Below are positions 7,347 through 23,702 of a stretch of DNA of 63,641 bases, piece after piece. Under the pieces are notes generated by a model. That model made no database searches. It was not told where the DNA came from and saw nothing but the letters and a program-made list of their open reading frames with translations. Where the stretch lies: assembly GCA_964646395.1 (NCBI GenBank), contig CAZYEM010000001.1, positions 1 through 63,641 of the forward strand. Direction: 5' to 3'. Position 1 is the stretch's first letter; the number at the start of each line of letters is the position of its first letter. A program made the position numbers and the translations under genes. This DNA is from an uncultured Bacteroides sp. Lineage in GTDB: Bacteria; Bacteroidota; Bacteroidia; Bacteroidales; JACABE01.

Positions 7347-7853
7347 TTAGATTAATACAAAACCATTCTTGTCAACTTTACCTGCTTTATGTAATGCTTG
7401 TAATTCTGCAATAGATTTACCAAGTGTTTTTTGGAAATGAGGTGCATCATTAAACTTCCAGTCGCCACCCCACTCGTAGCCATATCTTTTAAAAATAGCT
7501 ACAATCTCTTGCCAATCACTCTTGCCATCGCCATCAAAGTCAGTCTTTAAGTCCCAACTTGCAGTTTCAAAAGTGCCATTCTTATCCTTATCAACTAACA
7601 AAACAATATCAATAGCTAACCCGTAATTATGATATGACTGACCGCCTTTAGCCTTAGTAACAATAGCACCCGGCTTCGTTCTGCCTTGTGCAAACAATCC
7701 GTCTTGTTCTGCAAATGTTCTTAGGGTGTAAGCAAAACGACAAGCTGCTGTGCCTGTTAAAGCTGCAACAATCTCATCATACATAGTTAACGCTTCTTCT
7801 CTTAATTTAGGGTGGAGCAATTGTATTCTCTCCAACGTTTTTTGGTCTTTCAT
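7347..7853 (-). CDS. endolysin, peptidase M15 (VanY / L-alanyl-D-glutamate peptidase-like)
   Basis: SYHNYGLAIDIV matches the SxHxxGxAxD zinc motif. YEWGGDWKFNDAPHF matches the WGGxW...D.PHF motif. Confidence 0.85.
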   Translation of the reverse strand: MKDQKTLERIQLLHPKLREEALTMYDEIVAALTGTAACRFAYTLRTFAEQDGLFAQGRTKPGAIVTKAKGGQSYHNYGLAIDIVLLVDKDKNGTFETASWDLKTDFDGDGKSDWQEIVAIFKRYGYEWGGDWKFNDAPHFQKTLGKSIAELQALHKAGKVDKNGFVLI

Positions 7854-7931
7854 TTTTATAACATTTTAATTGTAAAATATGTCAATAATATTACCCAGAG
7901 GGTTGCCCCTATAAGTAATGCTCTTTTTTCA

Positions 7932-8156: not shown

Positions 8157-8157
8157 A

Positions 8158-8797: not shown

Positions 8798-9117
8798 TAT
8801 TTAAGGGATTTTATAGCTCCTAAATCATTTAACATTTTTAATTGAGATGCCGTTACTGCGCCTGATGAATCGCTTCTTCTCAATGCATCTTGCACTGCGT
8901 CTAATCTTGTTTCCACTTTATCAACCCTTCTGTCTTGCTTATCTGCATTTGTCTGGAATGTGCTTCTTATATCTACATACAAATATCCCATAGCTATAAT
9001 AGCTAAAAATGCAATTGCTTCTTTTGGATGCTTGACAAAATCTTTAAAGCTGACCGGCAATGGATTTGCAGATACATTTACATCTTTTTTTTCATCTGTC
9101 TTTTTTGTTGTTGCCAT
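8797..9117 (-). CDS. type II membrane coiled-coil protein, i-spanin-like (106 aa)
   Basis: One TM segment (AIAFLAIIAMGYLYV) is followed by a helical region (DKQDRRVDKVETRLDAVQDALRR). It sits directly upstream of the lipoprotein gene. Confidence 0.45.
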   Translation of the reverse strand: MATTKKTDEKKDVNVSANPLPVSFKDFVKHPKEAIAFLAIIAMGYLYVDIRSTFQTNADKQDRRVDKVETRLDAVQDALRRSDSSGAVTASQLKMLNDLGAIKSLK

Positions 9118-9119
9118 TG

Positions 9120-9677
9120 TTAAAATATTTTAGAGTAGTATCCTAATTGGAACTGTTTGTTGTTAGTAATATTTAATTGGATAATTCCTTTGTTAGCTGA
9201 TTTGTAAATCAAGCCTCCTCCGTATCCAAAATTGTTTTCTTGCTTTGTTGCCATTACTCCCCAATACAATGATGCTTTTGGTGGTGGCGGTGGCGTGCGT
9301 ATCTCTCTTACCTTCACAATAGTTTTTTGTGTTAAGCTAGCGTTAAAACTTCTGCCATATATCTTGTTTTGTGATATAGTGTCATTTATAGCTACTATTC
9401 CCTCTGGTAATGATAAAGTATCTTTGAATACATTCTTGGCAAAGAAATCTTTTAAAATAGCGCTGGTATCTACATTTAGAAAACTGATTGTTGTATCGTA
9501 TATTGTAGTATCATGCACTATGTCTTTTCCTTTCTTCCATTTATATATGGTGGTATCTTGTCTTAAAGTATCTACCTTTTCTATTACGACAGGCTGTATG
9601 TCTTTTAAAGAAATAGCAGATTTTGTCATTAAAAAAATGATAAACAATAATACGACTATAAATATGTTCTTATACAT
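9120..9677 (-). CDS. exported protein with beta-barrel-like C-terminus ending in Phe (185 aa)
   Basis: The signal/TM N-terminus is MYKNIFIVVLLFIIFLMTKSA. A PPPPP linker is present. The C-terminal alternating-hydrophobic strands GIIQLNITNNKQFQLGYYSKIF end in F, as in OMP barrels. Confidence 0.45.
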   Translation of the reverse strand: MYKNIFIVVLLFIIFLMTKSAISLKDIQPVVIEKVDTLRQDTTIYKWKKGKDIVHDTTIYDTTISFLNVDTSAILKDFFAKNVFKDTLSLPEGIVAINDTISQNKIYGRSFNASLTQKTIVKVREIRTPPPPPKASLYWGVMATKQENNFGYGGGLIYKSANKGIIQLNITNNKQFQLGYYSKIF

Positions 9678-9765
9678 ATGTCAAATATACTGATGTTTGA
9701 TATTTTTTATGCGATTTTTTACGTTAACTTTTTTATATTAATTTTTTAAATTAAATTTATTAATA

Positions 9766-9773
9766 TAAATTTG
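9766..9773 (+). promoter_or_regulatory. candidate -7 promoter element (TAAATTTG) for the glycosyltransferase gene
   Basis: It matches TAnnTTTG and lies 20 nt upstream of the ATG at 9794. It sits in the 116-bp divergent intergenic region. No clear -33 TTTG was found. Confidence 0.3.
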
Positions 9774-9793
9774 CTGAATACTAAAATCGGATT

Positions 9794-12667
9794 ATGAAAA
9801 TATTATATCTAATGTCGCATATCTCAACGGGCGGTATGCCTCAATTTGTACTTAAACGTATTCAAACTTTACTTGACTATGCTGAATCGTTTGAAATTTT
9901 TGTTGTGGAATACGAGGATTATGGAAAGTTATTCCCGGTACAAAGGGATCAAATAATCTCTTTATTGGGTAATAACTTTTATAGTCTTGATAGCGACAAA
10001 ATGCGAGCTATGGATATAATTAGGGATAACGGAATAGATATTGTTCATTTGGATGAAATGCCAGAATCAATGGGCAATGACACACTTTTTAATGAATTGT
10101 ATTGCAATGATAGGACTTGGCGCATAGTAGAAACTTGTCATAACTCTAATTTTAGACCTCTTGATAGTAAACGATACCATCCTGATATGTATGCTTTTTG
10201 CACCTCTTGGCACGAAGATATATTTGCAGGGATGGATAGTAAGTTTGTAACCATACCTTACCCAATAGATTTAAAGCTTAATTTATGGATAGAAAAAATA
10301 CACGCTAAGAAGGATTTAGGCATGGATTTAAAGAAGAAGCATGTTATAAATGTAGGGCTTTGGACTTCGGGCAAGAATCAAGCTGAAGGGTTAGAAATTG
10401 CTCGTAAGTACCCTGATATGATGTTTCATTTTATCGGCAATCAAGCGGGGAACTTTATGGACTATTGGGAGCCACTAATGAAGGATTTACCTAGCAATGT
10501 GAAAGTGTGGGGGGAAAGGACTGATATATCTACCTTTATGTCTGCGGCTGATATTTTTATGTTTAATTCTACTTGGGAGCTAAATCCATTGGTACTTCGT
10601 GAAGCTATTGGTTACAAACTGCCCATTATTGCCCGTAATTTGCCTCAATATGATGGTATGTATGATAAGTATATTAATCCAATAGATACTGATTTAAGTA
10701 CCTTAGAATGTAATTACAACGTACCTACCGATAACAATTCATTGATTTTTGGATTAAGGCATGAAGAAGCCTATTTAAAGTTACTTGAACTACCAATTAA
10801 GGAGCAAAAGCCTATTATAATACAACATTTTGTAGATAATCCATACTTGGAGATTAAAGGAATTAATGTTAGTGCTAAAAAAGATAAGGATTCTGTATCA
10901 ATTGTTTTAGCCCACCCTAATAACGATTTCAGGAAACAACTGCTTAAAAATTGCTTATCTAGTTTAAACACGAATATCATTTTGTCTGCGAATTTTCCAA
11001 TAGAGGAAGATGCACAAGAGCTTTGTGATTATGTTATTTATACAAAAGAGAATCCTTTGTTGTTTAAGAGTGAATTTGCTAAATACAATGTGGCATATTA
11101 TCATTGGTTTACAAATAAAAAAGGAGAAAAAGAGTACCAATTATTTGAAAAAGAACATGGGTATTGCGTGTATACCTTAATGCGTAATGGAATAGAATTG
11201 GCTAAAAAACTAGGCTATAAGAAGGTAAACATAATCAATTACGACTACCAGCTTACTAAAGCAACAATAAACAACAATTTAAAGGAATTAGATACAAATG
11301 ATTTTGTAGTCTATAAATACACTAACCTGTCTTATGAAGAAGATTCATATTGCTCTGCTTTTTTATCAGCCAAAACAGATGCTATCTTATCATTTGTAAC
11401 CAAATTTAAAGACAAAAAAGATTACTACACAAATGGCACATCTTTCAATATACTTGAAGTTAAGTTCTATAACTTTTTAAAAGAAAACAACTACAAGGTT
11501 AAAGAGTTGTTAATGGCTGACTTGAAAAAGGATAACAAAGTTGACATTGAAGGAATAGACTATACAAATGATGTCCAACGAGATAAGGTTCTTTTAGACA
11601 AAAGATTTTATGTTGAATTTTACGAAAATGGTAATTGTGTCTATAATAATCATTTAGATGTTAATAATTGGGTAAAACTAAATAGACAATGGTTTACTGA
11701 ATGGGAGGTTAAAATATGGGATCAAGGTAATTTGATATTTGAAAACAAGCTAAACCTTGAAAGCAAGAGAGTCTTTATAACGCTTGAAAGTAAATCACTA
11801 GGGGACACTTTAGCTTGGATGCCATATGCTTTGGAGTTTAAAAAGAAACATAATTGCCATGTCATTGTATCTACTTTCTGGAATCATATGTTTGATTACC
11901 CTGAATTAGAATTTGTAAGTCCGGGTGATGTGGTTCAAAACGTATATGCTTTATACAGAGTCGGGTGGTTTTATGATGAAAATAAAGAACCTGAAGTGCC
12001 TCATACAATTTCAATGCAAAAGGCTGCTACTAACATACTAGGGTTAGAGTACAAGGAGGTAAGACCTAGATTAAAGATAAAACCTGTTGAAAAAATTAAG
12101 CAAGTAGTCATTGCTATACATTCTACCGCACAAGCTAAATATTGGAATAATCCAAAAGGATGGCAAGAAGTGGTAGACTATTTGATTAGCAAAGGATATG
12201 TGGTTAAACTTATATCCAAAGAAGGCGTTGACTATATGGGCAATATAGCCCCAAATGGCGTAGTTGTCCACCCGAATGGTAGTATTGAGTCAGTTATGGA
12301 AGAAATGCTTAAATCGGAGTTCTTTATAGGTATAGGGAGCGGTTTAAGTTGGCTATCTTGGTCTTTAAATATCCCAACCGTTATTATTAGTGGTTTTTCT
12401 GAACCTTTTGCTGAGATGGAAGATTGTATAAGAGTATCTGCACCTCAAGGAAAGTGTAGTGGTTGCTTTAATAGGCATAGATTAAACGCAGGAGATTGGA
12501 ATTGGTGTCCTGATCATAAAGGGACTGAAAGACAATTTGAATGCACTAAATCAATTACTGCACAAATGGTTATAGATAAAATAAAAGATTTTATGGGCAA
12601 GATCCATCAATGGCAACTATTGGGGAAAACTGCGCCATCTAACAATTTCCATCACCAGATTCAATAA
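9794..12667 (+). CDS. three-domain glycosyltransferase: N-terminal GT-B (GT4-like, EX7E), central unknown domain, C-terminal TibC/Aah-like (BAHT family) protein O-glycosyltransferase domain
   Basis: The N-terminal domain has KKHVINVGLWTSGKN and STWELNPLVLREAIGYKLPIIA, which carries the EX7E motif. In the C-terminal domain, EWEVKIWDQGNLIF and VFITLESKSLGDTLAWMPYALEFKKKHNCHV resemble the TibC/Aah N-terminal beta-domain and the TLGDxxAWxxYAExF segment. A CX2CX13CX11C cluster (C888, C891, C905, C917; nt 12455-12544) resembles the BAHT iron-finger. Confidence 0.7.
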   Translation: MKILYLMSHISTGGMPQFVLKRIQTLLDYAESFEIFVVEYEDYGKLFPVQRDQIISLLGNNFYSLDSDKMRAMDIIRDNGIDIVHLDEMPESMGNDTLFNELYCNDRTWRIVETCHNSNFRPLDSKRYHPDMYAFCTSWHEDIFAGMDSKFVTIPYPIDLKLNLWIEKIHAKKDLGMDLKKKHVINVGLWTSGKNQAEGLEIARKYPDMMFHFIGNQAGNFMDYWEPLMKDLPSNVKVWGERTDISTFMSAADIFMFNSTWELNPLVLREAIGYKLPIIARNLPQYDGMYDKYINPIDTDLSTLECNYNVPTDNNSLIFGLRHEEAYLKLLELPIKEQKPIIIQHFVDNPYLEIKGINVSAKKDKDSVSIVLAHPNNDFRKQLLKNCLSSLNTNIILSANFPIEEDAQELCDYVIYTKENPLLFKSEFAKYNVAYYHWFTNKKGEKEYQLFEKEHGYCVYTLMRNGIELAKKLGYKKVNIINYDYQLTKATINNNLKELDTNDFVVYKYTNLSYEEDSYCSAFLSAKTDAILSFVTKFKDKKDYYTNGTSFNILEVKFYNFLKENNYKVKELLMADLKKDNKVDIEGIDYTNDVQRDKVLLDKRFYVEFYENGNCVYNNHLDVNNWVKLNRQWFTEWEVKIWDQGNLIFENKLNLESKRVFITLESKSLGDTLAWMPYALEFKKKHNCHVIVSTFWNHMFDYPELEFVSPGDVVQNVYALYRVGWFYDENKEPEVPHTISMQKAATNILGLEYKEVRPRLKIKPVEKIKQVVIAIHSTAQAKYWNNPKGWQEVVDYLISKGYVVKLISKEGVDYMGNIAPNGVVVHPNGSIESVMEEMLKSEFFIGIGSGLSWLSWSLNIPTVIISGFSEPFAEMEDCIRVSAPQGKCSGCFNRHRLNAGDWNWCPDHKGTERQFECTKSITAQMVIDKIKDFMGKIHQWQLLGKTAPSNNFHHQIQ

Positions 12668-13196
12668 CAACACCAACACTTGTATTGATTACTTGACTTG
12701 AGAATGTTACATAATAAGGTCCTGGACCTAATGAAGAAAATCCATCTATACAGGCAGTATTATATTCAGAATCTTCTATACGCATATAATTGTCAAGGTT
12801 AGTAGCATCTGCATAATAAACCAATATATCGTATGTACCTATTTGTGTAGTGTAACCTGTTGTGCCATTACCTATATCTAATGGGAATGAAGCACCTGTA
12901 ATACTAACTCCATTAACTGTAACGTTTGTTATAGTTCCTGTAAAGAAATTATTTGTAATGTATAAAGTGGCTTCATTATTTTGTAAATCTTGTTTTACAA
13001 CTAATTGATTATCTGCTTTTGCTGCAAAAGAAGGATATGAGGGGTTTACAGTTACATACGTATTACAAGCAGACTTTGTAGCCATTTTGTTGGTAGAGGG
13101 TATAGTAGTTTTTGCACTAAAGTATCCTTGAGACACTCCACTGATTAAGCTATTAAAAGATACACCTTGATTATTTGCTAAGTCACTATATGCCAT
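12639..13196 (-). CDS. hypothetical virion/fibre-associated protein (185 aa)
   Basis: It is the last gene of the leftward late block, directly after a fibre gene. It is Ser/Thr/Asn-rich and beta-type in composition. The 3-prime 29 nt overlap the convergent GT gene. Confidence 0.5.
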   Translation of the reverse strand: MAYSDLANNQGVSFNSLISGVSQGYFSAKTTIPSTNKMATKSACNTYVTVNPSYPSFAAKADNQLVVKQDLQNNEATLYITNNFFTGTITNVTVNGVSITGASFPLDIGNGTTGYTTQIGTYDILVYYADATNLDNYMRIEDSEYNTACIDGFSSLGPGPYYVTFSSQVINTSVGVVIESGDGNC

Positions 13197-13198
13197 GT

Positions 13199-14725
13199 TT
13201 ATTTTAATTTAGCTTCTAATTCTGCAATACGTTTTTCTAATGCTGCTATTTTTAATGTATGAACATCCATGTAATTTACGGATAACTTTTCACCACCTGA
13301 AACTGCCTCTGGAAGATATGATTGCACTTGTTGAGCCGAATAACCATATCTTACTGCATTGTTATCATCATCTGTTCTAGTAAATTTAATTACATCTATT
13401 GGTAAGTCTATTGATGGATTTGTTTCTAATACATTCTTAAATCTTATATCTGAACTTTCAAAAAATGCAGCAGCAGTTAGATTAGAACCGCTAATTGTTA
13501 CTCCTGTATTTGCTGTTGCACTATTAGATGTACCATTGGCTGTAAGCACAGCTCCTGCAGTTGTTGGAGAAATAGAATTAAATCCAGTTCCATTTACCCC
13601 ACTTGTGCCTGAAGAACCATTGCCTCCGTTTGCACCTGAAGTACCTGACGAACCCGAAACACCACTTGTACCATTACCACCTTGCGCGCCACTTGTACCT
13701 GACGAACCGGCACCTCCGTTTACTCCTGAAGAACCTGATGAGCCAGAAACGCCGCTTGTACCTGACGAGCCATTTGCGCCAGATGTGCCACTAATACCAG
13801 CCGTTCCGTTTACTCCACTTGTTCCAGAAGATCCGTTATTCCCATTTACACCGCTTGTGCCTGAAGATCCGTTATTCCCATTTACACCGCTTGAACCGCT
13901 TGAGCCACTTGTTCCGTTCACTCCGCTTGAGCCGCTTGAGCCGCTTGAACCGCTTGAACCGCTTGAGCCACTTGTACCATTTGCGCCAGATGTGCCATTT
14001 ATTCCCGATGTGCCATTTGCCCCCGAAGTCCCTGAACTACCATCGCCACCACTAGCACCGGCTAGGTTTACTAACCATGCATTGTATGTGCCTGAACCAA
14101 CTGTTGTGATTGGCGCACCAAATACTAAACTGCCTGTGCCGTTGTTATAAGATGTTACAACTGATTCTTGATAGTTGCTAGGATTAAAAGATATGATAAC
14201 TGTTTGACTAGGACTATAAGCTAATCCAACGCCGACAGTAATAGTTCCAGCATTGCCTAATGTGAATGAAGTAGCTGATGATGTTAAATATCTGTCCCCG
14301 CTAATGCCGCTTGTACCTGAAGTACCAGTAGTTCCTGAAGTTCCAGTAGTACCGCTTGTACCGGTAGTTCCTGAAGATCCTGATGAACCTGAAGATCCTG
14401 AAGATCCTGACGAGCCAGAAGATCCTGATGTTCCCGTAGTACCACTTGAGCCTGACGAGCCAGAAGATCCACTACTACCACTTGATCCAGAAGATCCACT
14501 ATTACCACTAGTACCTGAAGTACCCGTAGTACCACTTGATCCATAAATAGGTATATTTAATACATTGCTACTAAAAGTAGCCGGTCCAGTTGTGCCAAAT
14601 GTGGTTAAGCTAATTGGTAGTTGATAATCCACATTAGGGGTTGCAGTTGCAAAACCACTTGTACCAACTTGCTTTATTATGCCTGATACATTAGGTATTT
14701 CACTAAGGACTGTATTTTTGCTCAT
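13199..14725 (-). CDS. collagen-like tail fibre with C-terminal intramolecular-chaperone (peptidase S74-like) domain
   Basis: Two uninterrupted Gly-X-Y tracts of 28 and 53 triplets. The C-terminus is SDIRFKNV...YGYSAQQVQSYLPEAV...LKIAALEKRIAELEAKLK, typical of endosialidase-chaperone domains. Confidence 0.8.
   Translation of the reverse strand: MSKNTVLSEIPNVSGIIKQVGTSGFATATPNVDYQLPISLTTFGTTGPATFSSNVLNIPIYGSSGTTGTSGTSGNSGSSGSSGSSGSSGSSGSSGTTGTSGSSGSSGSSGSSGSSGSSGTTGTSGTTGTSGTTGTSGTSGISGDRYLTSSATSFTLGNAGTITVGVGLAYSPSQTVIISFNPSNYQESVVTSYNNGTGSLVFGAPITTVGSGTYNAWLVNLAGASGGDGSSGTSGANGTSGINGTSGANGTSGSSGSSGSSGSSGSSGVNGTSGSSGSSGVNGNNGSSGTSGVNGNNGSSGTSGVNGTAGISGTSGANGSSGTSGVSGSSGSSGVNGGAGSSGTSGAQGGNGTSGVSGSSGTSGANGGNGSSGTSGVNGTGFNSISPTTAGAVLTANGTSNSATANTGVTISGSNLTAAAFFESSDIRFKNVLETNPSIDLPIDVIKFTRTDDDNNAVRYGYSAQQVQSYLPEAVSGGEKLSVNYMDVHTLKIAALEKRIAELEAKLK
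13583..14059 (-). repeat. collagen-like tract (53 Gly-X-Y triplets, proline-free)
   Basis: I counted the triplets GAS GGD GSS GTS GAN ... GVN GTG (aa 223-381 of the 508-aa fibre). The degenerate 9-nt DNA periodicity creates long shadow ORFs on the opposite strand. Confidence 0.85.
14291..14542 (-). repeat. collagen-like tract (28 Gly-X-Y triplets, proline-free)
   Basis: The triplets GSS GTT GTS ... GIS GDR cover aa 62-145 of the 508-aa fibre. Confidence 0.85.
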
Positions 14726-14735
14726 TTTCTATTTT

Positions 14736-14915: not shown

Positions 14916-14938
14916 TTTTTTAGTTTTTATTTTATATA

Positions 14939-14946
14939 CAAATATA
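14939..14946 (-). promoter_or_regulatory. candidate internal -7 promoter element (TATATTTG on the minus strand)
   Basis: The reverse complement of CAAATATA is TATATTTG, which matches TAnnTTTG. It lies about 24 nt upstream of the ATG at 14915. Confidence 0.25.
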
Positions 14947-16003: not shown

Positions 16004-17410
16004 TTATTTAGCTGCAATCATTGCTTTTAATTCTTCTATTTGTGCTTGTTGCTCTTGAATACACTTTGTCAAAATAGCAAACTCCATTCCAACCTTTAAA
16101 CCTAATGAATCTTCATACCCACTTATTAAGTTTCCGTCATCATCATATTTTCTTGTGTCATTTTGATATACAAAAGATGGGAATACCTCCTGCATTTCTT
16201 GTGCTATAAATCCTATGTGCTTGTCCTCATTACCTATCAAATTAAAATTTACCACATTCAACCTCATTATGTCATAAAGTTTAGGTGTAGCAGATACGAT
16301 GTTTTCTTTTAATCTTCTATCAGATGCAAGTGTACCATAAGAACCATTAGTGTTTACTATATTTCCATTACCATAAACAAACATTCTGTCTGACCCATCT
16401 GTGACTGCTATGTAATGATAATTAGATGCATTATTACTTGTACTTCCTAATACAGTGATTATTGCAACATTATCAGTAGCGCTTGTATTTGTATTTCTAA
16501 ATTCGTGATACGCACCATTTACTCCAATATAACTACCGTTATTACTTGCCTTAATAAAACCCCCCGATGTGATTCTCATTCGTTCGGTAGGTCCAGTATA
16601 AAAACTTAAAAATCCAGTACTAGTAAATGATTGTTGCATTCTAAACTCTTCAGTTTGAGCATCACTATATAATCTTGGACCATTAGTTGATTCATTAAAT
16701 CTTAAACTTGATTGATATGTAGATTCAGCTTTAAATATTAAATTTTGATATGCACCAATATAAACATCTAATTTACCTGCAGGGCTACTCGTTCCGATTC
16801 CAACGTTACCTGAAGCGTCAAGACGCATTTTAGCAGTAGGAGTAGTTGAGCCACTATTTGATGTTCTAAAATCAATATAACCTCCATCTGCTCCTGTTGT
16901 TGTTTGCTCAATATGAATAGCACCTAAAGAACCTCTATTGCTTTGACCCGTAAATCTTCCACCTGCCGTTGCAACGTCTAATGCTTGTTTAGAAATAACT
17001 TGTCCATTGGTATCTATTAAAAAAGAACCTCCTGTTTGTGTAAATGTAGCAGCACCGGTATAAGCTAATGCTAAGCCAGATGTTCCATTAGGCATAATAT
17101 TTAATCCTGCATCTGTTCCTTCTGCAGCAGTTGAAATTGTCCATAAAGGAGTACCAGCAGTTAATTTAAAATCTAACGCTTTAATTTGATTAGATGCATT
17201 TCTACCAGACATTCTTATAACTGTCTGTACTGCATCTTGCGTAAGACCACTAAACGTAGCACTTGTACCACTTAAAGCACCAGTAAGGTTAGTAGCTCCT
17301 GTTACTTGTAGTTTAAATGAGGCATTGGCTGCTGCACCTATACCCACATTATTAGAGGAGTCTGTAAAGACGCAATTATTTAAAAAACCGGTATCCCTTG
17401 TTTTGCCCAT
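16004..17410 (-). CDS. tail fibre protein with C-terminal intramolecular-chaperone (S74-like) domain (468 aa)
   Basis: It has NVGIGAAANASFKLQVTG and GNVGIGTSSPAGKLDV repeats and the ERMRITSGG module. The C-terminus is SDRRLKENI...HIGFIAQEMQEVFPSFV...IEELKAMIAAK. Confidence 0.75.
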   Translation of the reverse strand: MGKTRDTGFLNNCVFTDSSNNVGIGAAANASFKLQVTGATNLTGALSGTSATFSGLTQDAVQTVIRMSGRNASNQIKALDFKLTAGTPLWTISTAAEGTDAGLNIMPNGTSGLALAYTGAATFTQTGGSFLIDTNGQVISKQALDVATAGGRFTGQSNRGSLGAIHIEQTTTGADGGYIDFRTSNSGSTTPTAKMRLDASGNVGIGTSSPAGKLDVYIGAYQNLIFKAESTYQSSLRFNESTNGPRLYSDAQTEEFRMQQSFTSTGFLSFYTGPTERMRITSGGFIKASNNGSYIGVNGAYHEFRNTNTSATDNVAIITVLGSTSNNASNYHYIAVTDGSDRMFVYGNGNIVNTNGSYGTLASDRRLKENIVSATPKLYDIMRLNVVNFNLIGNEDKHIGFIAQEMQEVFPSFVYQNDTRKYDDDGNLISGYEDSLGLKVGMEFAILTKCIQEQQAQIEELKAMIAAK

Positions 17411-17415
17411 GATCT

Positions 17416-18933
17416 TTATCTATTAATAAGTGAGTTTATTGTTTGTTGTTGTTCGTTTACTTTTTGGTTTAGTTCTTGGATTGCTTTAACTAATAAAGAT
17501 ACCATATTTGCATAATAAATGGCATCTGGAGTTTTATCTTCTGCATATTGTACAAATTCAACCAAGCCTAAATCATTTATTTCCTCTGCTATTAAACCTG
17601 CATATTGTGTATCTCCATCATTTTTGCCTTTATAATAAACAGGTCTTAATTGCATTACCTTCTCTAAGCCTTTATCATAATTTCTTACATCGGTTTTATA
17701 TTTTATTGATGAAGTTGACCTTTGTAAAGTTCCGTCATTAGCAAATATTGCATTTGCCCCTGCTCCTGTTGTATTGTTATAAGGTGAATTTGGTCTTGTT
17801 CCTGTACTTGTTAATCCATCATTTCTTACATAAAACAAATCTTGAACATTTGAGTTTGCTATCCCTAATGCAAAAGCTGTACTATCCGATGTTGCTGCAG
17901 TTATTTGTAGCCTAAAATTAGAATAACCAGTTGAGCCTATCCCAACCATACCCCCCGATGTGATTACCATTCTTGCAGCAGCAGCAGTTTCATCATATAT
18001 TATATAACTATTTGAAAAGTCAAAAGATAATCCAGTAATATATGATTTAGCAGTACTTTTAAAAACAGCATAAGCATTTGCATTTGCAATTGAAGATTCT
18101 AAAACTAATGTTTGAGTATTTGCTGCGCCACCTAAAACGTGCAACTTTTGACTTGGACTACTCGTTCCAATTCCAACGTTACCACCTAATGGTTGTAATA
18201 ATAAATTATAAGCAGCCGTATTTCCATCTGTTCTTTGGCTTTGTAAATATGTATTACCATTTGTTAAAACGTCTGCCACCATTCCATAAACGCCACCATT
18301 CAATAACTGAAATTTTGCAGTTGATGTTCCTAATGCAGCCGGTGAGCCTGAATTATTACTTCCATAAACTATAATACCACCACTTGCCGTTATATTACCC
18401 GAAAAATTAGCAGCACCAGTATTGGCTAATGTAAATAATGTAGCAGTATCTGCTTGGTTAAGAATTGTAAGATTTGTTGAGCCAGTATATAAATAATTTA
18501 TAGAGCCGCTTGCAGCAGCAAAAAATCTATTTGCACCAATAAAATTATATACACCACCCGCAAAAGTTACACCACCCGTCAAAGTTCCACCCGCTAAAGG
18601 TAAGTAAGCAGATAGGTTACTTGTAAGGGCTATTGTACCACTTGCATCTGGTAATGTATATGTTCTATCTACTGATAAGGCAGCTGGTTGAATAAACCCA
18701 TTTGAACCATTTCTTAAATTTAATACACCAAATCCTGAACCAGTTAAATCTCTTGATAACGAGGCCAATAAACCATAACCAGTTGGTTGAATAATAAAAT
18801 TATCTGCATTTACATTTCCAGTAACTTGTAATTTATAACTACCAGAAGCTGCTCCTCCTATACCTACATTATAAGATGAATTTACTGCTATTGCATTTGA
18901 TAAAATTGCGTTACCTGTATTTAATGATGGCAT
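17416..18933 (-). CDS. tail fibre protein with C-terminal intramolecular-chaperone (S74-like) domain (505 aa)
   Basis: It has NVGIGGAASGSYKLQVTG and GNVGIGTSSPSQKLHV repeats and an ARMVITSGG module. The C-terminus is SSIKYKTDV...YAGLIAEEINDLGLVEFV... Confidence 0.75.
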   Translation of the reverse strand: MPSLNTGNAILSNAIAVNSSYNVGIGGAASGSYKLQVTGNVNADNFIIQPTGYGLLASLSRDLTGSGFGVLNLRNGSNGFIQPAALSVDRTYTLPDASGTIALTSNLSAYLPLAGGTLTGGVTFAGGVYNFIGANRFFAAASGSINYLYTGSTNLTILNQADTATLFTLANTGAANFSGNITASGGIIVYGSNNSGSPAALGTSTAKFQLLNGGVYGMVADVLTNGNTYLQSQRTDGNTAAYNLLLQPLGGNVGIGTSSPSQKLHVLGGAANTQTLVLESSIANANAYAVFKSTAKSYITGLSFDFSNSYIIYDETAAAARMVITSGGMVGIGSTGYSNFRLQITAATSDSTAFALGIANSNVQDLFYVRNDGLTSTGTRPNSPYNNTTGAGANAIFANDGTLQRSTSSIKYKTDVRNYDKGLEKVMQLRPVYYKGKNDGDTQYAGLIAEEINDLGLVEFVQYAEDKTPDAIYYANMVSLLVKAIQELNQKVNEQQQTINSLINR

Positions 18934-18945: not shown

Positions 18946-19689
18946 TTATTCGTTACGTTTTTTTCTTTTAACTACCTTTTCTGGATGTTTATACTTCCAA
19001 ATATACCCACATACTTCTTTTAATTTACCTTGACAACACTTTGTAATATTTGTTGATGTCCCATATTGCTTAACAGCATCAATTATTCCTTCCCATTCTT
19101 TGATAAAGTTACCGTTTAAATCGTATTGTAAAATAATGGTTTTTTTACATTTAGACATCCTATTCTTTGTTTCATCAGTAATAACACGATTTTTGTTATT
19201 TTCAGATATTTTAATCCTATGTTCCAAAGACATTGGATTTTTATGCTTTATGCCAATTCTTGATTCTTTATGCTTTTTAAGCATTTCTGGGTCTTGCAAT
19301 CTTTTTTTGTGATATTCTGATAGCCTTTTTTTACATTCTTCAGTATGTTTTTTACCTTTATGAGAATCTGACATCTTTTTTGCTACTTCTTTAGTTATAA
19401 TTTTATTCAAACAGCCATCTCCGCCATCTGTTAAATTAACCAAACATCCTGTTCCTAAATCAACTCTACCATACAATTTAATAAATTCTATTTCTTTTGC
19501 CCTTGCGCTGTCATCATCAAGATTATCAAACAAAATATCAACTTCGTAATTCGTATTTTTTACAATATTATGCCAATGTTTGTTTCTATTATCTTTTCCA
19601 TAAGCCCTATAGTAATTTTTAGCACTACCAATACCTATGTAAAACGGTTCGTTTTTGTCTAATCTGATATGTCTATAAACGTATGGCAT
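18946..19689 (-). CDS. free-standing GIY-YIG homing endonuclease (paralogue of 15299..15988)
   Basis: The N-terminus is YVYRHIRLDKNEPFYIGIG. NUMOD3-like repeats follow (AKKMSDSHKGKKHTEE, SLEHRIKISENNKN). The C-terminus is ILQYDLNGNFIKEWEGIIDAVK...GYIWKYK. The start overlaps the stop of the upstream fibre gene (TAATG). Confidence 0.8.
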   Translation of the reverse strand: MPYVYRHIRLDKNEPFYIGIGSAKNYYRAYGKDNRNKHWHNIVKNTNYEVDILFDNLDDDSARAKEIEFIKLYGRVDLGTGCLVNLTDGGDGCLNKIITKEVAKKMSDSHKGKKHTEECKKRLSEYHKKRLQDPEMLKKHKESRIGIKHKNPMSLEHRIKISENNKNRVITDETKNRMSKCKKTIILQYDLNGNFIKEWEGIIDAVKQYGTSTNITKCCQGKLKEVCGYIWKYKHPEKVVKRKKRNE

Positions 19690-22600
19690 TATTTTGTAGC
19701 TACAATTTTATGAAGTTCGTCTATTTCTGCTTTTAACTCTTGTATTGCTTTTACTAAAACTGCAGTTAATTGTCCATAAGATAATCCCTTCATACCTCTA
19801 TTGTCTGTTGATACTAATTCTTTAATTACTTCTTCAACTTCCTGTGCTATAAAACCAACTTGTTCTAAATTATCTTCTTTCATTTTATAACTTCTTGGCT
19901 TTAACTTTAATACTGCATCTAAGCCATATTCAATATCCTTAACATCTTTTTTAATAGAAATATCTGATGCATCAGTCCATACCCCTGCACTTGATAAAGT
20001 TCCTTGATTACTACCATTCCACCATGCCATTGTGCTACCATTCATATAGCATTGTCTATAATTACCACCATCATAAACTGCCATACCAATTGCATCAAGT
20101 GCTAATCTTGCACTTGCAGAATTTGTTCCAATTCCCATTAATACACTACCCCCCGATGTGATTCTCATTCTTTCTGAATTGCCTGTTCTTATACTAAAAT
20201 CACTTGCACTTGTTGTTCCTACAAAAGAATCACTACTAACTCCACACTCAAGCATCACTGTTGTACCAGCAGGATTTGTTATTTTTACACCTTTCGTTCC
20301 ATCTACTGCTGCATTTGCAACCGCTAAATGTAATAAAGCACTTGGACTTGCAGTTCCAATTGCAACTGATCCTCCTAATGGTTGTAATAAAATAGGGTAA
20401 TTAATATTACTATTATTAGCATCTTTAACTTGTAACCACATACCATAAGATGCACCATTATAACCACCGATATTTAATTGTGGCCCTAAATTACCCGTAA
20501 TTGAAAATAAGTTATTTGTATCAGCAGTCATTGATGGATTACCAGAAGTTCCAAATACACTTAATCTTGCTATGTCATTTGCATTATTAACTCTTACACT
20601 ACTTGAGAATGTAGCAGCACCAGTAGTGCCTATTGTAAGTCTTGCAGTAGCATTTGTGCCTAAAATTAATTCTTTTGAATTTGGGGTATATATTTCTAAT
20701 CCTTCAGCACCCGTTGCACTTATTATTTGTGCCATAAAATTAGTTCCACTTATACCAGCAGATGCACCTTTTTGTCTAACTGCAACTGCATATAAATCAG
20801 CAGAATATCCAGTTATAGTATTATTTGCAGATGTTGAATTTGTGCCAACAACAGTTAATGCTTGATTACTATTAAACGTAGCACTTGTACCAGCTAAAGC
20901 TCTAGATACTAAAGTAACAGTTGTTCCATCATCTGTAATTGCACTATCTCCTATTGATGCGGATGCGGTGAACTTTGGTATGGTATTAATTGTACCACTA
21001 CCAGCAATACCACTATAAGCTCCTACTGCATAAGAATAAGCATATACTACTACTATATCATTTACTTGACAAGCAGTAGCTAATATTATACTTGTACCAT
21101 TGGTCGCAGTATATTCTGATTGAGCTAAATTAGAACCATTATAAAATACATCTATTAACCCTTGAGTATATGTAACTGCAAATGTGGTCTGACCAGCAGT
21201 CGCAGTAAATGTAGTTATTGTTCTAAGTGCATTGGTTGGTAAAAATGCAGTCAAATAGTTATCAATTTCAACAATCTGACCAACTGTTAAAGCATCTGTT
21301 AATACCACAGTAGTACCATTGGTTGCCGTATAATCCACGCCATTAACCAATTTAACTCCATTTACAAACACATCTACCATTCCTACGCTATAACCATTGG
21401 TTACAGTGAAAGTTGTTTGACTTGCTGTTGCAGTAAATACTTGAACTGCTCTTGCAGAAGTGGTTGCGTTACCCGAAGTGCCTGATGAACCAGAAGTACC
21501 TTGCGCCCCTGATGTACCTGAAAGACCGCTAGTACCTGACGTACCAGTTTCGCCTGACGAACCAGTGCCGCCAGATGTACCAGAGCTACCGCTAGTTGCA
21601 CTTGTTCCAGAAGAACCGGAAGTACCAGTTTCCCCTGATGAACCGGTTGCGCCAGATGTTCCACTTGATCCGCTAGTACCTGATGAACCAGAAGTGCCTG
21701 CTATTTGACCTACTGAAGTTATTACATAAGAATAGTTTGTTGATCCTTCGGTATACCAATTTATATTGTGAGTTCCTGATCCAAAATTTGTAACGTAAAT
21801 CTTTACAATAATGCGATCTGTATCAAGAATCGCAGTTGTTGGAAGCACTAAGTCTGTAAGTACCTCAACCGGTGTTGAAGCATCTAAAAAGTCTACTTCT
21901 GAAGCATTTGTAGGTATTATTGTACCATAACCAACGCCCGCAGAGTTTGCTAATTCTATTGTTACATATGCTTCAAAAGCGTTACCATTTGCTTGTTTTA
22001 GAAAATGTAAATGAAATCTTTGTACTCCGCCCGGTATAATGGTAAATCCTAATTCTGGAGTTAGAAATGAACTAACTAAAGCAGTTGATCCTGAACTTAC
22101 CCCAGAAACAGTTACAGTTTGCTGTGCTGCTGTTGAAGGTTCGGTAGCTAATACCTTATAAGGAGATACATCAGAAGATGCACTTTGGTTAAAATAATAA
22201 GTCTGTCCTGCTGAAATGCCGCTTACTCCGCTTGTTCCTGCTGTTCCTGAAGTACCCGTTGTTCCACTTGTGCCTGTTGTACCACTTGTACCGCTTGAAC
22301 CAGAGGTGCCTGCCGTTGCAGAAGTACCTGATGTACCTGCTGTTGCAGAAGTACCAGAAGTACCGCTTGAACCATCGCCACCACTCGCGCCATCCAAGTT
22401 CACTGTCCATGCGCTATAAGTACCACTACCCACTGTTCTAGTAGGGGCTAAAAATGTTAAAGAACCTGTATTTGCATCATATGATACTACCTCGCACTCT
22501 TGAAAGTTTGAAGCATCATAAACTATAATTATTGATTGAGCAGGGCTATATCCCAATAGTGTTCCTATTGTTATAGTACCTGCATTGCCTAAAGTAAATG

Positions 22601-23702
22601 TTGTAGTAGATGTTGTTCTATATCTATCTCCTGAAAGACCTGATGTACCTGTTGTACCCGAAGTGCCACTAGTTCCAGTTGTACCGCTAGTTGCGCTTGT
22701 ACCTGATGAACCACTAGTACCTGTTGTGCCTGAAGTACCATTTATACCTGAAGTACCTGACGAACCGCTTGAACCACTGCTTCCACTTGTTGCAGATGTT
22801 CCGGAGGAGCCGGAAGTACCACTAGAACCGCTTGAACCACTTGAGCCAGATGAACCGCTAGAGCCACTTGAACCTGAGCTTCCTGAACTACCAGAAGTAC
22901 CAGTAGTACCGCTAGTACCACTTGTAGCAGAGCTACCACTTGAACCAGAGCTTCCACTTGTACCAGAAGAACCATCACCACCAGAAGCTCCATCTAAGTT
23001 CACTACCCAATTAGAGAATGTTCCACCGCCTACAACTCTATTAGGATCACCAAATACTAATTCTCCTGTAACAACATTATAAGAAACTACCTCACATTCT
23101 TGAAAGTGAGTATTATCATGTACTACAATAATTGATTGAGCAGGAGAGTATGATAAGCCGGGAGAAACCATAAGATATCCACCAGTTCCTAATGTAAAAA
23201 TAGATACAGATATTGTATAATACTTATCCCCACCAATACCTGAAGTACCAGTTGTTCCAGAAGTTCCTGCGGTGCCTGCCGTCCCTGATGAACCAGAAGA
23301 AGAAACATAGCTAGATACAAAATTATCTATCTCTACATTATCGCCTACTTTTAAAGGATTATTAAGTATTACATTAAATCCATCTGTGGCTGTAAAATCG
23401 CTTGGGAATAATTTTACTCCATTAACAAAAACATCCACCATCCCATTATCATATCCGCTAGGAATATAAAAAGTAGTTTGTCCTGCTGTTGCTACAAAAT
23501 TATTTACAAGTCTACCTGCCGTACCTGCAAAACCAGAAGTACCAGCAGAGCCGGAAGTACCAGCAGTGCCAGATGAACCAGAAGTACCGGCTGTTCCTGA
23601 AGTAATATTACCAACAGAATCTACAACACCATTGGCGGCAATTAACACACCATTTAATTCTCTTATTTTTACTTCACCCGTAAAAAGACCTTGTATTGCC
23701 AT
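19689..23702 (-). CDS. large modular collagen-like tail fibre (1337 aa) with S74-like C-terminal chaperone domain
   Basis: It has at least five Gly-X-Y tracts. A roughly 60-aa F(V/T)ATAGQTTF...VDVFVNGVKL domain occurs three times. A roughly 77-aa GD(R/K)Y...W.VNL(D/A)GASGGDGSSG domain occurs twice. The C-terminus is SDISIKKDV...QVGFIAQEVEEVIKELV... Confidence 0.8.
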   Translation of the reverse strand: MAIQGLFTGEVKIRELNGVLIAANGVVDSVGNITSGTAGTSGSSGTAGTSGSAGTSGFAGTAGRLVNNFVATAGQTTFYIPSGYDNGMVDVFVNGVKLFPSDFTATDGFNVILNNPLKVGDNVEIDNFVSSYVSSSGSSGTAGTAGTSGTTGTSGIGGDKYYTISVSIFTLGTGGYLMVSPGLSYSPAQSIIVVHDNTHFQECEVVSYNVVTGELVFGDPNRVVGGGTFSNWVVNLDGASGGDGSSGTSGSSGSSGSSATSGTSGTTGTSGSSGSSGSSGSSGSSGSSGSSGSSGTSGSSGTSATSGSSGSSGSSGTSGINGTSGTTGTSGSSGTSATSGTTGTSGTSGTTGTSGLSGDRYRTTSTTTFTLGNAGTITIGTLLGYSPAQSIIIVYDASNFQECEVVSYDANTGSLTFLAPTRTVGSGTYSAWTVNLDGASGGDGSSGTSGTSATAGTSGTSATAGTSGSSGTSGTTGTSGTTGTSGTAGTSGVSGISAGQTYYFNQSASSDVSPYKVLATEPSTAAQQTVTVSGVSSGSTALVSSFLTPELGFTIIPGGVQRFHLHFLKQANGNAFEAYVTIELANSAGVGYGTIIPTNASEVDFLDASTPVEVLTDLVLPTTAILDTDRIIVKIYVTNFGSGTHNINWYTEGSTNYSYVITSVGQIAGTSGSSGTSGSSGTSGATGSSGETGTSGSSGTSATSGSSGTSGGTGSSGETGTSGTSGLSGTSGAQGTSGSSGTSGNATTSARAVQVFTATASQTTFTVTNGYSVGMVDVFVNGVKLVNGVDYTATNGTTVVLTDALTVGQIVEIDNYLTAFLPTNALRTITTFTATAGQTTFAVTYTQGLIDVFYNGSNLAQSEYTATNGTSIILATACQVNDIVVVYAYSYAVGAYSGIAGSGTINTIPKFTASASIGDSAITDDGTTVTLVSRALAGTSATFNSNQALTVVGTNSTSANNTITGYSADLYAVAVRQKGASAGISGTNFMAQIISATGAEGLEIYTPNSKELILGTNATARLTIGTTGAATFSSSVRVNNANDIARLSVFGTSGNPSMTADTNNLFSITGNLGPQLNIGGYNGASYGMWLQVKDANNSNINYPILLQPLGGSVAIGTASPSALLHLAVANAAVDGTKGVKITNPAGTTVMLECGVSSDSFVGTTSASDFSIRTGNSERMRITSGGSVLMGIGTNSASARLALDAIGMAVYDGGNYRQCYMNGSTMAWWNGSNQGTLSSAGVWTDASDISIKKDVKDIEYGLDAVLKLKPRSYKMKEDNLEQVGFIAQEVEEVIKELVSTDNRGMKGLSYGQLTAVLVKAIQELKAEIDELHKIVATK
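21465..21705 (-). repeat. collagen-like tract in the 1337-aa fibre (approximate limits)
   Basis: The region translates as GTSGSSGTSGSSGTSGATGSSGETGTSGSS...GAQGTSGSSGTSG. Limits are estimated from the extent of the shadow ORF. Confidence 0.6.
22212..22391 (-). repeat. collagen-like tract (about 20 triplets, with Gly-to-Ala interruptions)
   Basis: Covers aa 438-497: GAS GGD GSS GTS GTS ATA GTS GTS ATA GTS ... GIS. Confidence 0.7.
22623..22991 (-). repeat. collagen-like tract (about 41 triplets, three ATS interruptions)
   Basis: Covers aa 238-360: GAS GGD GSS GTS GSS GSS GSS ATS GTS ... GLS GDR. Confidence 0.7.

Follow-up and report, generated by a model that had tools for sequence, protein, structure and literature searches.

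What would a phage of flavobacteria glycosylate with a single 957-aa, three-domain glycosyltransferase whose last part resembles the bacterial autotransporter heptosyltransferases TibC and Aah? We first asked whether the gene is real, and confirmed an ATG-initiated ORF at 9794..12667 (+) of the 63,641-nt stretch of DNA that was analysed (hereafter the window). About 25 full-length homologues at 60-92% identity and more than 2700 partial homologues exist in metagenomes, and relatives occur in 257 IMG/VR contigs. It is the only real rightward gene between a lysis block and a tail-fibre block: its neighbours at 6968-9677 are leftward and form a lysis block with small membrane proteins, including an M15-family endolysin at 7347..7853 (-) (Peptidase_M15_4, 3.5e-17; PHROG endolysin, 1.6e-32), and leftward genes resume from 12639. 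The few other + strand ORFs in 7900-9700 lie inside leftward genes and look like shadow ORFs. The same order (lysis block, rightward glycosyltransferase, leftward fibres) recurs in L080, L096 and L097 (L numbers denote the individual loci compared). The convergent ORF at 12639..13196 (-) overlaps the 3' end of the gene by 29 nt (12639-12667), an overlap that comes from a roughly 20-aa C-terminal extension that relatives lack, as they align only to about residue 930-939. A promoter-like element, TAAATTTG, lies at 9766..9773 (+), exactly 20 nt before the ATG; however, TANNTTTG is not enriched in the window (98 matches against 107 +/- 9.5 expected) and is not conserved upstream of the gene in relatives, and it is therefore compatible with a Bacteroidota -7 promoter box but proves nothing.

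Next, we examined the domains in turn. Domain 1 (9794..10831 (+); aa 1-346) is a GT4-type GT-B glycosyltransferase, as the first-pass annotation had proposed: Pfam Glycos_transf_1 (6.9e-9; 35.9 bits against a cutoff of 26.4) and Glyco_trans_1_4 (1.3e-7) both exceed their cutoffs, and its EX7E motif, ELNPLVLRE (E262 and E270), has both Glu invariant in 74/74 homologous GT4 modules. Foldseek matched it to the retaining GT4 enzymes BshA, MshA, PimB', WaaG and HepE at E about 1e-8 and TM 0.5-0.58, and it ends at a low-pLDDT linker (residues 347-360). Domain 2 (10874..11545 (+); aa 361-584) had no Pfam, NCBIfam or PHROG hit. Its AF2 model (pLDDT 85, pTM 0.83) matched KdsB, BoGT6a, hyaluronan synthases, ColGalT1 and glycogenin at E 2e-6 to 1e-4, TM 0.45-0.49 and at most 15% identity, suggesting a GT-A / nucleotide-diphospho-sugar-transferase fold without a canonical DxD motif. 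This region is thus 'GT-like', as first annotated, at fold level only, and the same fold includes sugar nucleotidyltransferases such as KdsB. Intriguingly, the module is mobile, being C-terminal or N-terminal in other homologues and absent from 680-aa fusions, and its invariant residues are H374, N400, N420-P421, H455-G456-Y457 and N482-Y483-D484-Y485.

Domain 3 (11600..12616 (+); aa 603-941, with homology to stand-alone phage BAHTs starting near aa 558) is a complete TibC/Aah-type (BAHT) unit with an N-terminal beta-barrel, a GT9-like catalytic core, a thumb and a Cys4 finger, which supports the central claim of the first-pass annotation. TIGR04414 scored 1.1e-77 (261.5 bits against a trusted cutoff of 200), TibC (PDB 4RAP) matched at E 3.5e-52, and the predicted structure superposed on TibC with a TM-score of 0.72 (Foldseek E 3e-20; TM 0.71-0.74 over about 365 columns). 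The motifs EWEVKIWDQGNLIF and SLGDTLAWMPYALEFKKKHNC are present. D671 (codon at 11804..11806 (+)) aligns with the TibC catalytic base D110 (in SLGDTLAW), whose D110A mutant is inactive (PMC4358343), and the motif given in the first-pass annotation, TLGDxxAWxxYAExF, is approximately right, as TibC reads TLGDLLGWFPYAERF. The Cys4 'iron-finger' segment (12455..12544 (+)) contains C888-x2-C891-x13-C905-x11-C917, which aligns with TibC C339/C342/C358/C370. The positions corresponding to TibC D110, the phosphate ligands T226 and K230, the heptose-binding W305 and all four Cys are invariant in 79/79 phage domains, the window included, whereas the adenine-contacting Arg is not conserved.

We wondered whether the association of these modules was peculiar to this phage. 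It was not: the GT4+BAHT pair, fused or as adjacent genes, occurs in at least 567 viral contigs. The two are fused with a middle domain in the window, L001, L002, L004 and L005; fused directly in L006, L009, L015, L017, L027, L057 and L061 (end-truncated); and adjacent genes in about 65 loci, and a GT4 lies within the flank of 97 of 110 unique BAHT loci. This pattern fits the proposal in the first-pass annotation of a self-contained initiating and extending enzyme. About half of the 110 sampled loci also carry HldE-type heptose-activation genes. In L010, a CTP_transf_like gene (phrog_7878, HldE adenylyltransferase, 1e-36) and a PfkB kinase directly follow the BAHT gene, and these are present in 53 and 47 of the 110 loci respectively. 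Notably, the donor-contact residues of those BAHTs are identical to the window's.

To look for candidate acceptors, we turned to the neighbouring fibre genes. The first, at 13199..14725 (-), encodes a 508-aa collagen-like tail fibre (Pfam Collagen, 5.6e-31; PHROG tail-fibre families) with 69 G-X-Y triplets (GSS 27, GTS 18), Ser at Y in 50 of 69, and no Pro. The second, at 19689..23702 (-), encodes a 1337-aa collagen-like tail fibre with a C-terminal S74 chaperone domain (Pfam Collagen, 2.3e-31; Peptidase_S74, 1.4e-13; PHROG tail-fibre families) and 85 triplets (GTS 32, GSS 26), with Ser at Y in 62 of 85. Together, Ser occupies the Y position in 112 of 154 triplets. Two further tail-fibre genes within 16004..18933 (-) (468 and 505 aa), with S74 intramolecular-chaperone domains and 19-20% Ser+Thr, are possible additional acceptors. 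The convergent 185-aa protein (12639..13196 (-)) had no family hit; it has 22% Ser+Thr, is probably fibre-associated and is a short version of a 590-630-aa protein in relatives, its N-terminus matching by eye that of the 584-629-aa proteins of one protein cluster in L001, L002 and L004.

Pro-free collagen-like ORFs with 64-92% Ser/Thr lie within a few kb in every close relative and in differently arranged loci: in L005 the ORF is immediately upstream on the same strand, and others are found in L018, L095 (a 259-kb jumbo phage), L096 and L097. In a reverse test, 8 of 120 viral stretches chosen only for such repeats (mean 8.7 kb) contained a BAHT. L201/L232, L236, L238 and L253 carry compact clusters of GT4, BAHT, HldE adenylyltransferase, HldE kinase and a collagen-like ORF, and L258 has the same cluster but with only the kinase half detected. 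Independently of phages, in 10 of 13 bacterial loci a stand-alone BAHT of the same subfamily lies next to a collagen-like protein made mostly of GTS triplets, small (105-377 aa) in nine and an 872-aa ORF about 1.2 kb away in L082. These bacterial enzymes share the phage signature Y265/M266, an aliphatic residue at 286, and G300.

Coupled with the domain data, these comparisons suggest, with moderate confidence, that the gene encodes a cytoplasmic, multi-step enzyme that O-heptosylates Ser in the (G-T/S-S)n repeats of the 508-aa and 1337-aa tail fibres before assembly, with the GT4 and GT-A modules then adding further sugars so that one polypeptide both starts and extends the glycan. The acceptor is inferred from gene neighbourhood only, without experimental evidence, and the donor supply and biological role are likewise inferred; in this phage the host must supply the donor, although we could not establish that a Flavobacteriia host makes ADP-heptose, and no close relative was found in Flavobacteriia isolate genomes. 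Phage genes cluster by module, so proximity to fibre genes is partly expected, and about 92% of the repeat-selected stretches showed no BAHT in the short DNA available, indicating that Ser/Thr-rich collagen-like fibres often exist without a nearby BAHT. Furthermore, TibC is described as recognising a folded beta-helix with strand-loop-strand motifs, and a collagen-like repeat is a very different acceptor. On the other hand, TibC and Aah modify Ser, not Thr, of repetitive partners (PMC4358343), and their genes probably sit next to their substrate genes (tibC-tibA, aah-aidA). The retained Cys4 finger and the hydrophobic thumb tip suggest a TibC-like ring oligomer that works along a repetitive rod. 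More speculatively, dense glycosylation might replace proline/hydroxyproline in stabilising the triple helix, and/or protect the fibre or tune its adhesion.

The alternative that survives best, though it remains doubtful, is that the acceptor is as proposed but the first sugar in this Flavobacteriia phage is not heptose, the BAHT-like domain having shifted to another nucleotide sugar that the host makes. R286, the adenine ligand that explains ADP specificity in TibC, is Val here, and P300 (heptose O4/O6 contact through the main chain) is Gly. The window encodes no heptose-pathway gene by tblastn (E above 0.7), nor was any such Pfam family found in the 10 ORFs of 166 aa or more scanned from its two ends (eight + strand, two - strand). 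None of the collagen-type loci of the window's own phage lineage show HldE genes in their flanks, and heptose is probably not a typical LPS-core sugar of Bacteroidota. However, the same Val/Gly substitutions occur in BAHTs that sit directly beside HldE-type genes and in BAHTs of heptose-producing Proteobacteria, and therefore mark the subfamily rather than a donor switch. W305 (heptose O4), T226 and K230 are invariant, and the phage nucleotidyltransferases lack the GRSTT arginine that is linked to CDP/UDP promiscuity. The hedged suggestion in the first-pass annotation that the donor may not be heptose finds no support in the donor-pocket residues.

It is also possible, but somewhat less likely, that the enzyme is a protein O-glycosyltransferase with a different acceptor, such as the non-collagen parts of the fibres, the 185-aa protein, the 468- and 505-aa fibres, capsid or tail-tube proteins as in mycobacteriophages, or a host protein. 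In about 65 split-gene loci no collagen-like ORF is nearby, the neighbour there being a giant 2300-2800-aa fibre with about 20% Ser+Thr and an S74 chaperone domain; L057, L080 and Mel-JY01 show no annotated collagen-like gene in the DNA available; and TibC's known acceptors are beta-helical, a fold common in tail fibres and spikes. Yet the recurrence of (G-T/S-S)n proteins next to this BAHT subfamily is hard to explain otherwise, as it is seen in unrelated phage lineages and, without any phage context, in the 10 of 13 bacterial loci where the collagen-like protein is the only non-housekeeping neighbour. The reverse enrichment also argues against this alternative.

Modification of a non-protein acceptor (host LPS, capsule or a lipid carrier), in the manner of the distant GT9 relatives WaaC and WaaF or of phage serotype-converting glycosyltransferases, is unlikely. 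GT4 enzymes commonly act on lipid-linked or polysaccharide acceptors and the C-terminal domain gives a weak GT9 (LPS heptosyltransferase) signal (Pfam 8.4e-6, RfaC 8.6e-6), but it scores only about 25 bits on the LPS heptosyltransferase models against 261 bits on the BAHT-specific model, it keeps the BAHT-specific beta-barrel, thumb and Cys4 finger, the gene sits among late lysis and fibre genes of an apparently lytic genome, and no membrane segments or Wzx/Wzy-type partners were seen. Weakest is the idea of catalytically dead domains with a structural or chaperone role in fibre assembly: although the middle domain lacks a canonical DxD motif and matches no family, and the full-length model has only moderate confidence, the BAHT catalytic and donor-binding residues and the GT4 EX7E motif are strictly conserved across 74-79 diverged homologues and the middle domain has 22 invariant positions across copies down to 38% identity, which indicates purifying selection on active sites.

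Among known systems, TibC and Aah (TIGR04414; PDB 4RAP/4RB4; Yao et al. 2014, PMC4358343) share with domain 3 the fold and domain order, 30-34% identity, and the catalytic Asp, beta-phosphate Thr/Lys and heptose-binding Trp; they are cytoplasmic and the phage enzyme, too, presumably acts many times on a repetitive Ser-rich partner encoded nearby. TibC and Aah, however, are stand-alone proteins of about 400 aa, whereas the phage domain is fused behind a GT4 domain and a GT-A-fold domain, has no autotransporter partner (the recurrent neighbour being a Pro-free (G-T/S-S)n collagen-like protein or a giant fibre), and carries a subfamily signature in which Arg286 is Val/Ile/Leu/Met, Pro300 is Gly, the thumb tip F-V is Y-M and the Cys spacing is x13 instead of x15. 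Chlorovirus PBCV-1 A064R, the analogy drawn in the first-pass annotation, is likewise a virus-encoded, multi-domain enzyme that carries out several steps of glycan assembly on a virion protein, but the analogy is loose: A064R appears to have no BAHT or GT4 domain, no specific sequence or fold relationship was found, and hits to giant-virus proteins were generic GT-A fold matches with TM 0.4-0.5. Mycobacteriophage-encoded glycosyltransferases also appear to O-glycosylate the phage's own structural proteins in the host cytoplasm (Freeman et al. 2023, Cell Host & Microbe), although those enzymes seem to belong to different families, none a BAHT, to act on C-terminal tails of capsid and tail-tube proteins, and to use different sugars without phage-encoded heptose genes. 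Collagen-like G-X-Thr/Ser repeats with O-linked glycans appear to have precedents in BclA of the Bacillus anthracis exosporium and in vent-worm cuticle collagen, where galactosylated Thr would stabilise a hydroxyproline-poor triple helix; these probably involve different glycosyltransferases and sugars, and BclA repeats are probably GPT and so contain Pro, whereas here the repeats are Pro-free with Ser at Y.

The stand-alone BAHTs of Proteobacteria, as far as we could find uncharacterised, are 46-57% identical to the window's BAHT domain. These cellular genes have no GT4 or GT-A partner, so probably a single sugar is added. In Methylobacter luteus IMV-B-3098 (L084), the BAHT and its collagen-like partner sit between mfd and csiV on the chromosome, and the partner has a signal-peptide-like N-terminus, so it is probably an exported surface protein rather than a virion fibre.

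The ORF at 9794..12667 (+) encodes 957 aa and lies between a leftward lysis block, which holds an M15 endolysin at 7347-7853 and small membrane proteins up to 9677, and a long leftward structural block that begins with tail-fibre genes. It overlaps the convergent ORF 12639..13196 by 29 nt, owing to a non-conserved C-terminal extension of about 20 residues. The first-pass annotation had also pointed to an upstream element, and TAAATTTG indeed lies 20 nt upstream of the gene; however, this motif class is not enriched in the window (98 found, 107 expected) and is not conserved in relatives, so that it is compatible with a Bacteroidota promoter box but is not evidence for one. All the peptide motifs that the first-pass annotation described are present, and the Cys pattern is C888-x2-C891-x13-C905-x11-C917.

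Low-confidence linkers at residues 347-360 and 585-602 separate three units, although the full-length AF2 model (pTM 0.43) says nothing reliable about how these pack against each other. No PHROG family matched the protein. Domain 1 (aa 1-346) is a GT4-type (retaining GT-B) glycosyltransferase: Pfam Glycos_transf_1 (PF00534) scores 35.9 bits against a gathering score of 26.4 and Glyco_trans_1_4 (PF13692) 32.4 against 27, and the EX7E glutamates E262 and E270 are invariant in 74/74 homologues. The modeled secondary structure alternates beta and alpha, and Foldseek matches the retaining GT4 enzymes BshA, MshA, PimB', WaaG and HepE at E 2e-8 to 3e-7 and TM 0.5-0.58, consistent with a two-Rossmann GT-B fold. 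Domain 2 (aa 361-584) matches no Pfam, NCBIfam or PHROG family. A confident model (pLDDT 85, pTM 0.83) predicts a GT-A / nucleotide-diphospho-sugar-transferase fold, but the PDB matches are moderate (TM 0.45-0.49) and include KdsB-type cytidylyltransferases as well as GT6, GT2, GT25 and GT8 enzymes. The domain carries invariant H374, N420-P421, H455-G456-Y457 and N482-Y483-D484-Y485; the motif at the expected place is N-Y-D-Y rather than DxD, and the domain may be either a transferase or a nucleotidyltransferase. It is a mobile module, central here, C-terminal in the 1000-1200-aa homologues, N-terminal in two others (P0042 and P0064) and absent from the 680-aa fusions.

Domain 3 (aa about 558/603-941) is a complete BAHT (TibC/Aah) unit. 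TIGR04414 matches aa 611-931 at E 1.1e-77 and 261.5 bits against a curated cutoff of 200, covering profile positions 37-372 of 374, and TibC (4RAP) scores E 3.5e-52. Foldseek of the AF2 model against 4RAP/4RB4 gave E 3e-20 and TM 0.71-0.74 normalised to TibC, with about 365 of 381-390 residues aligned, in agreement with the TibC protomer fold of N-terminal beta-barrel, atypical GT-B core, thumb and finger; local pLDDT is low in 623-636, 725-738 and 890-904. We are highly confident that this domain is a genuine enzyme of the BAHT lineage.

To test membership at the residue level, we took the functional residues of TibC from Yao et al. 2014 (PMC4358343) and aligned TibC with 79 phage BAHT domains. 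The catalytic base D110 (D671 here), the beta-phosphate ligands T226 and K230 (T778 and K782), the heptose-O4 ligand W305 (W853) and the four finger cysteines C339, C342, C358 and C370 (C888, C891, C905 and C917) are invariant in 79/79. Of the residues needed for the TibC dodecamer, F368 (F915) is kept in 77/79 and the thumb-tip pair F265-V266 is replaced by another two consecutive hydrophobic residues, Y814-M815 (Y-M in 74/79), which shows conservation of residue character only. By contrast, R286, which contacts adenine N1 and accounts for ADP specificity, is V834 in the window, Val in 73/79 phage domains and Ile, Leu or Met in the cellular collagen-associated BAHTs. Residue 300, the heptose stereoselectivity determinant (Pro in TibC, Ser in Aah), is G848 in the window, Gly in 74/79 and Ser in 5/79. 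Nor was any autotransporter found among the neighbors scanned in the window or in related loci; the neighbors are tail fibres and collagen-like proteins.

The protein has more than 2700 homologues among metagenome proteins, and a single-sequence scan found relatives in 257 IMG/VR contigs. Among 50,697 GenBank phage records, only huge metagenomic phages and Microcystis phage Mel-JY01 carry it. In Mel-JY01 (PP395634.1) it sits inside a 1226-aa protein annotated as 'methyltransferase FkbM' (4750-8430), which contains the GT-A module and a BAHT domain that the annotation does not mention. Within 1-3052 of the same record, the annotated CDS 739-2298 (-) translates to 33% Pro and overlaps a + strand reading frame with 176 Ser/Thr-rich G-X-Y triplets; the deposited annotation may be on the wrong strand of a collagen-like gene. 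UniProt automatically names one 924-aa uncultured-phage protein 'Glycosyltransferase Aah/TibC', but we found no paper that discusses phage BAHTs.

The architectures vary among phage loci (numbered with the prefix L). GT4, GT-A and BAHT occur in one protein in the window, L001, L002, L004 and L005, whereas GT4 is fused directly to BAHT in L006, L009, L015, L017, L027, L057 and the end-truncated L061. In about 65 loci, a roughly 723-aa protein (GT4, a Methyltransf_24/TylF-like methyltransferase and a weak GT25-like region) is immediately followed by a stand-alone 380-387-aa BAHT. GT4 is within reach of the BAHT in 97 of 110 unique loci; as contig ends truncate many loci, this and our other tallies are lower bounds. 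Such fusion and fission of the same two modules is classic evidence that they act in one pathway. Relatives that lack the middle domain have extra separate genes in the same cassette, including a GT2, methyltransferases (Methyltransf_21, 23 and 24), a GT92 and a second GT4. In the 259-kb jumbo-phage contig L095 (about 5600-21600), the GT4-BAHT-GT-A gene sits among a GT9, a GlcNAc-transferase, HtrL/YibB, a cytidylyltransferase-like gene, an APS kinase and a sulfotransferase, next to a 1619-aa collagen-like ORF with 325 triplets, suggesting a sulfated fibre glycan.

We next considered the sugar donor. In the split-gene lineage, the BAHT gene is directly followed by a 128-aa cytidylyltransferase-like protein (phrog_7878, 'heptose 7-phosphate kinase/heptose 1-phosphate adenyltransferase', 1e-36) and a 246-aa PfkB kinase, the two halves of HldE, which occur in 53 and 47 of 110 unique BAHT loci, respectively. 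The BAHTs next to them have exactly the same donor-pocket residues as the window's domain, including Val286 and Gly300, and the BAHTs of heptose-producing Proteobacteria share these residues too. The substitutions therefore mark a subfamily, not a change of sugar, and we rejected the loss of Arg286 as evidence for a non-ADP donor. We also looked in the phage nucleotidyltransferases for the STTR5 motif, (F/L)xxGRSTT, which marks enzymes that also make CDP- or UDP-heptose. There were 0 strict matches in 41, most having G(F/I/L/V)STT without the Arg, which gives no support for promiscuity but is not proof of ADP specificity. The window itself yielded no heptose genes: tblastn with phage HldE halves gave nothing, and Pfam scans of ten ORFs at its two ends (eight + strand, two - strand) found DNA ligase, NinG, metallophosphatase and similar, but no sugar-nucleotide enzymes. 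The host is inferred to be a member of the Flavobacteriia only from relatives of the primase/helicase, which belong to phages of Flavobacterium, Cellulophaga, Nonlabens, Tenacibaculum and Maribacter, and we could not establish that such a host makes ADP-heptose. NDP-heptose remains the most economical donor, but for this particular phage it is an inference.

As to the acceptor, two tail fibres close to the gene (508 aa and 1337 aa) contain 69 and 85 G-X-Y triplets, almost entirely GSS and GTS with no Pro, and Ser sits at the Y position in 112 of 154 triplets; TibC and Aah modify Ser and not Thr (PMC4358343). Every close relative has such Pro-free collagen-like ORFs, with 64-92% Ser/Thr, within a few kb, as do loci with quite different gene orders: L005, where the ORF is immediately upstream on the same strand, L018, the jumbo contig L095, L096 and L097. 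In the split-gene lineage the neighbor is usually a giant 2300-2800-aa fibre with about 20% Ser+Thr and an S74 chaperone domain, yet some of these loci (L201/L232, L236, L238 and L253) have compact clusters of GT4, BAHT, HldE adenylyltransferase, HldE kinase and a collagen-like ORF. L258 has the same layout, but only the kinase half was detected. As a reverse control, we picked 120 viral DNA stretches (1.04 Mb in total, mean 8.7 kb) only because they encode six consecutive G-[T/S]-S-like triplets. Eight of them contain a BAHT and four also contain GT4, whereas BAHT-encoding contigs number of the order of 567 in 2.9 million, a lower bound. The enrichment is therefore large, although Pro-free, Ser/Thr-rich collagen-like ORFs, some with more than 700 triplets, are very common in viral contigs and most have no BAHT in the short DNA available.

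The most telling result came from bacteria, because it is independent of phage genome organization. The 13 bacterial genome loci with the closest BAHTs include chromosomes of Methylobacter luteus and Methylobacter sp., and Methylomicrobium, Polaromonas and Rickettsiaceae MAGs. Ten of them have a Pro-free collagen-like gene right next to the BAHT gene, in either orientation, made mostly of GTS triplets (Ser/Thr 64-100% of X and Y) and small (105-377 aa) in nine of the ten; in L082 it is an 872-aa ORF about 1.2 kb away. In M. luteus the pair sits between mfd and csiV, and the collagen-like protein has Pfam Collagen at 4.8e-8 and a signal-peptide-like N-terminus. These enzymes are 46-57% identical to the window's domain, against 32-41% to TibC, and share its signature residues. 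We found no paper that links collagen-like proteins with heptosyltransferases.

Taken together, we have a catalytically intact BAHT domain fused to an intact GT4 domain and a conserved domain of predicted GT-A fold, and a conserved genomic partnership with heptose activation and with (G-T/S-S)n proteins or giant fibres. We infer, with moderate confidence, that in the cytoplasm of the infected cell the BAHT domain O-heptosylates Ser residues of the collagen-like segments of the tail fibres, and that GT4 and the GT-A module extend the heptose, so that the fibres carry short hetero-oligosaccharides. Support for Ser heptosylation is indirect, and everything about the acceptor, the donor and the biological role rests on gene neighborhood and residue conservation. 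The retained finger and thumb suggest a TibC-like ring that processes a repetitive rod, although the 560 extra N-terminal residues could alter assembly. More speculatively, the glycan may stabilize a triple helix that has no proline, or protect or functionalize the fibre.

Of the alternatives, a non-heptose donor acting on the same acceptor in this host is unlikely but not exclusive of our reading, whereas a different protein acceptor, which competes with it, is somewhat less likely still. We consider a non-protein acceptor or inactive domains, both of which also compete with it, very improbable.

The enzyme belongs to the TibC/Aah lineage and, we infer, works like these enzymes, but it lacks two family-defining features that we tested, an autotransporter partner among the neighbors scanned and Arg286, and comes in a new architecture and biological setting. 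We searched for resemblance to chlorovirus A064R, which the first-pass annotation had offered as an analogy, but no specific fold hit appeared. BAHTs are known only as virulence-associated modifiers of autotransporter adhesins in Gram-negative pathogens, and our data suggest that the family is much broader; a conserved partnership with (GTS)n collagen-like proteins would be a new acceptor class. Phage virion glycosylation as such is known from mycobacteriophages, where it appears so far to have been demonstrated for capsids and tail tubes. The same idea would now apply to tail fibres of abundant freshwater, marine and jumbo phages, with consequences for host recognition, fibre stability, protease and immune evasion, and phage engineering. 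The proposed acceptor class, the phage cassette and the link to viral heptose genes are, as far as we could find, undescribed.

A broader possibility, which we hold only tentatively, is that there is a previously unrecognized branch of the BAHT family, shared by Proteobacteria and many environmental phages, whose natural acceptor is a proline-free collagen-like repeat, (Gly-Thr/Ser-Ser)n, rather than an autotransporter. Phages would have expanded this branch into a portable fibre glycosylation cassette, with BAHT as the initiator, GT4, GT-A or GT2 modules as extenders, methyl- or sulfotransferases as tailoring enzymes and often their own HldE-type NDP-heptose synthesis; the window's 957-aa protein would compress the initiator and the two glycosyltransferase extender modules into a single polypeptide. 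This would give a concrete and testable use for the heptose-biosynthesis genes recently found in viruses, whose role was explicitly called an open question in 2024 (PMC11573728), and would define 'glyco-collagen' tail fibres in which dense Ser-O-heptosylation takes over the helix-stabilizing role of hydroxyproline. A single polypeptide that both starts and extends an O-glycan on a simple repeat could also be useful for glyco-engineering collagen-like biomaterials in E. coli.

In some split-gene phages (L019, 9104-9658 and 5770-7875; L047, 6031-8145 and 8187-9029; also L026, L028, L050 and L065) a P4H-type 2OG-Fe(II) oxygenase (PF13640, 2.8e-17) lies just upstream of the GT4+BAHT pair, together with proteins that have poly-Thr runs and long (Pro-Thr/Ala-Pro)n mucin-like linkers. 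This hints at a second modification system, proline hydroxylation plus O-glycosylation, on other virion proteins. In about 65 loci, a large, length-variable protein (780-1260 aa; 14897-17659 in locus L010) with an N-terminal cytidylyltransferase-like domain (HxGH-type motif) and a region with a KxDG ligase-like motif is conserved between the glycosylation genes and the terminase. In the window itself, two paralogous homing-endonuclease genes (PHROG 314; NUMOD3/NUMOD1 motifs) at 15299-15988 (-) and 18946-19689 (-) are interleaved with the tail-fibre genes and could promote shuffling of fibre modules. A 2543-aa ORF of ordinary composition (11% Ser+Thr) lies at 39353-46984 (-). Finally, a small DUF7936 protein (PF25590, 9.7e-19; phrog_7802) at 14966-15292 (-) lies between the collagen-like fibre gene and a homing-endonuclease gene, and its homologues recur next to fibre genes in related loci.
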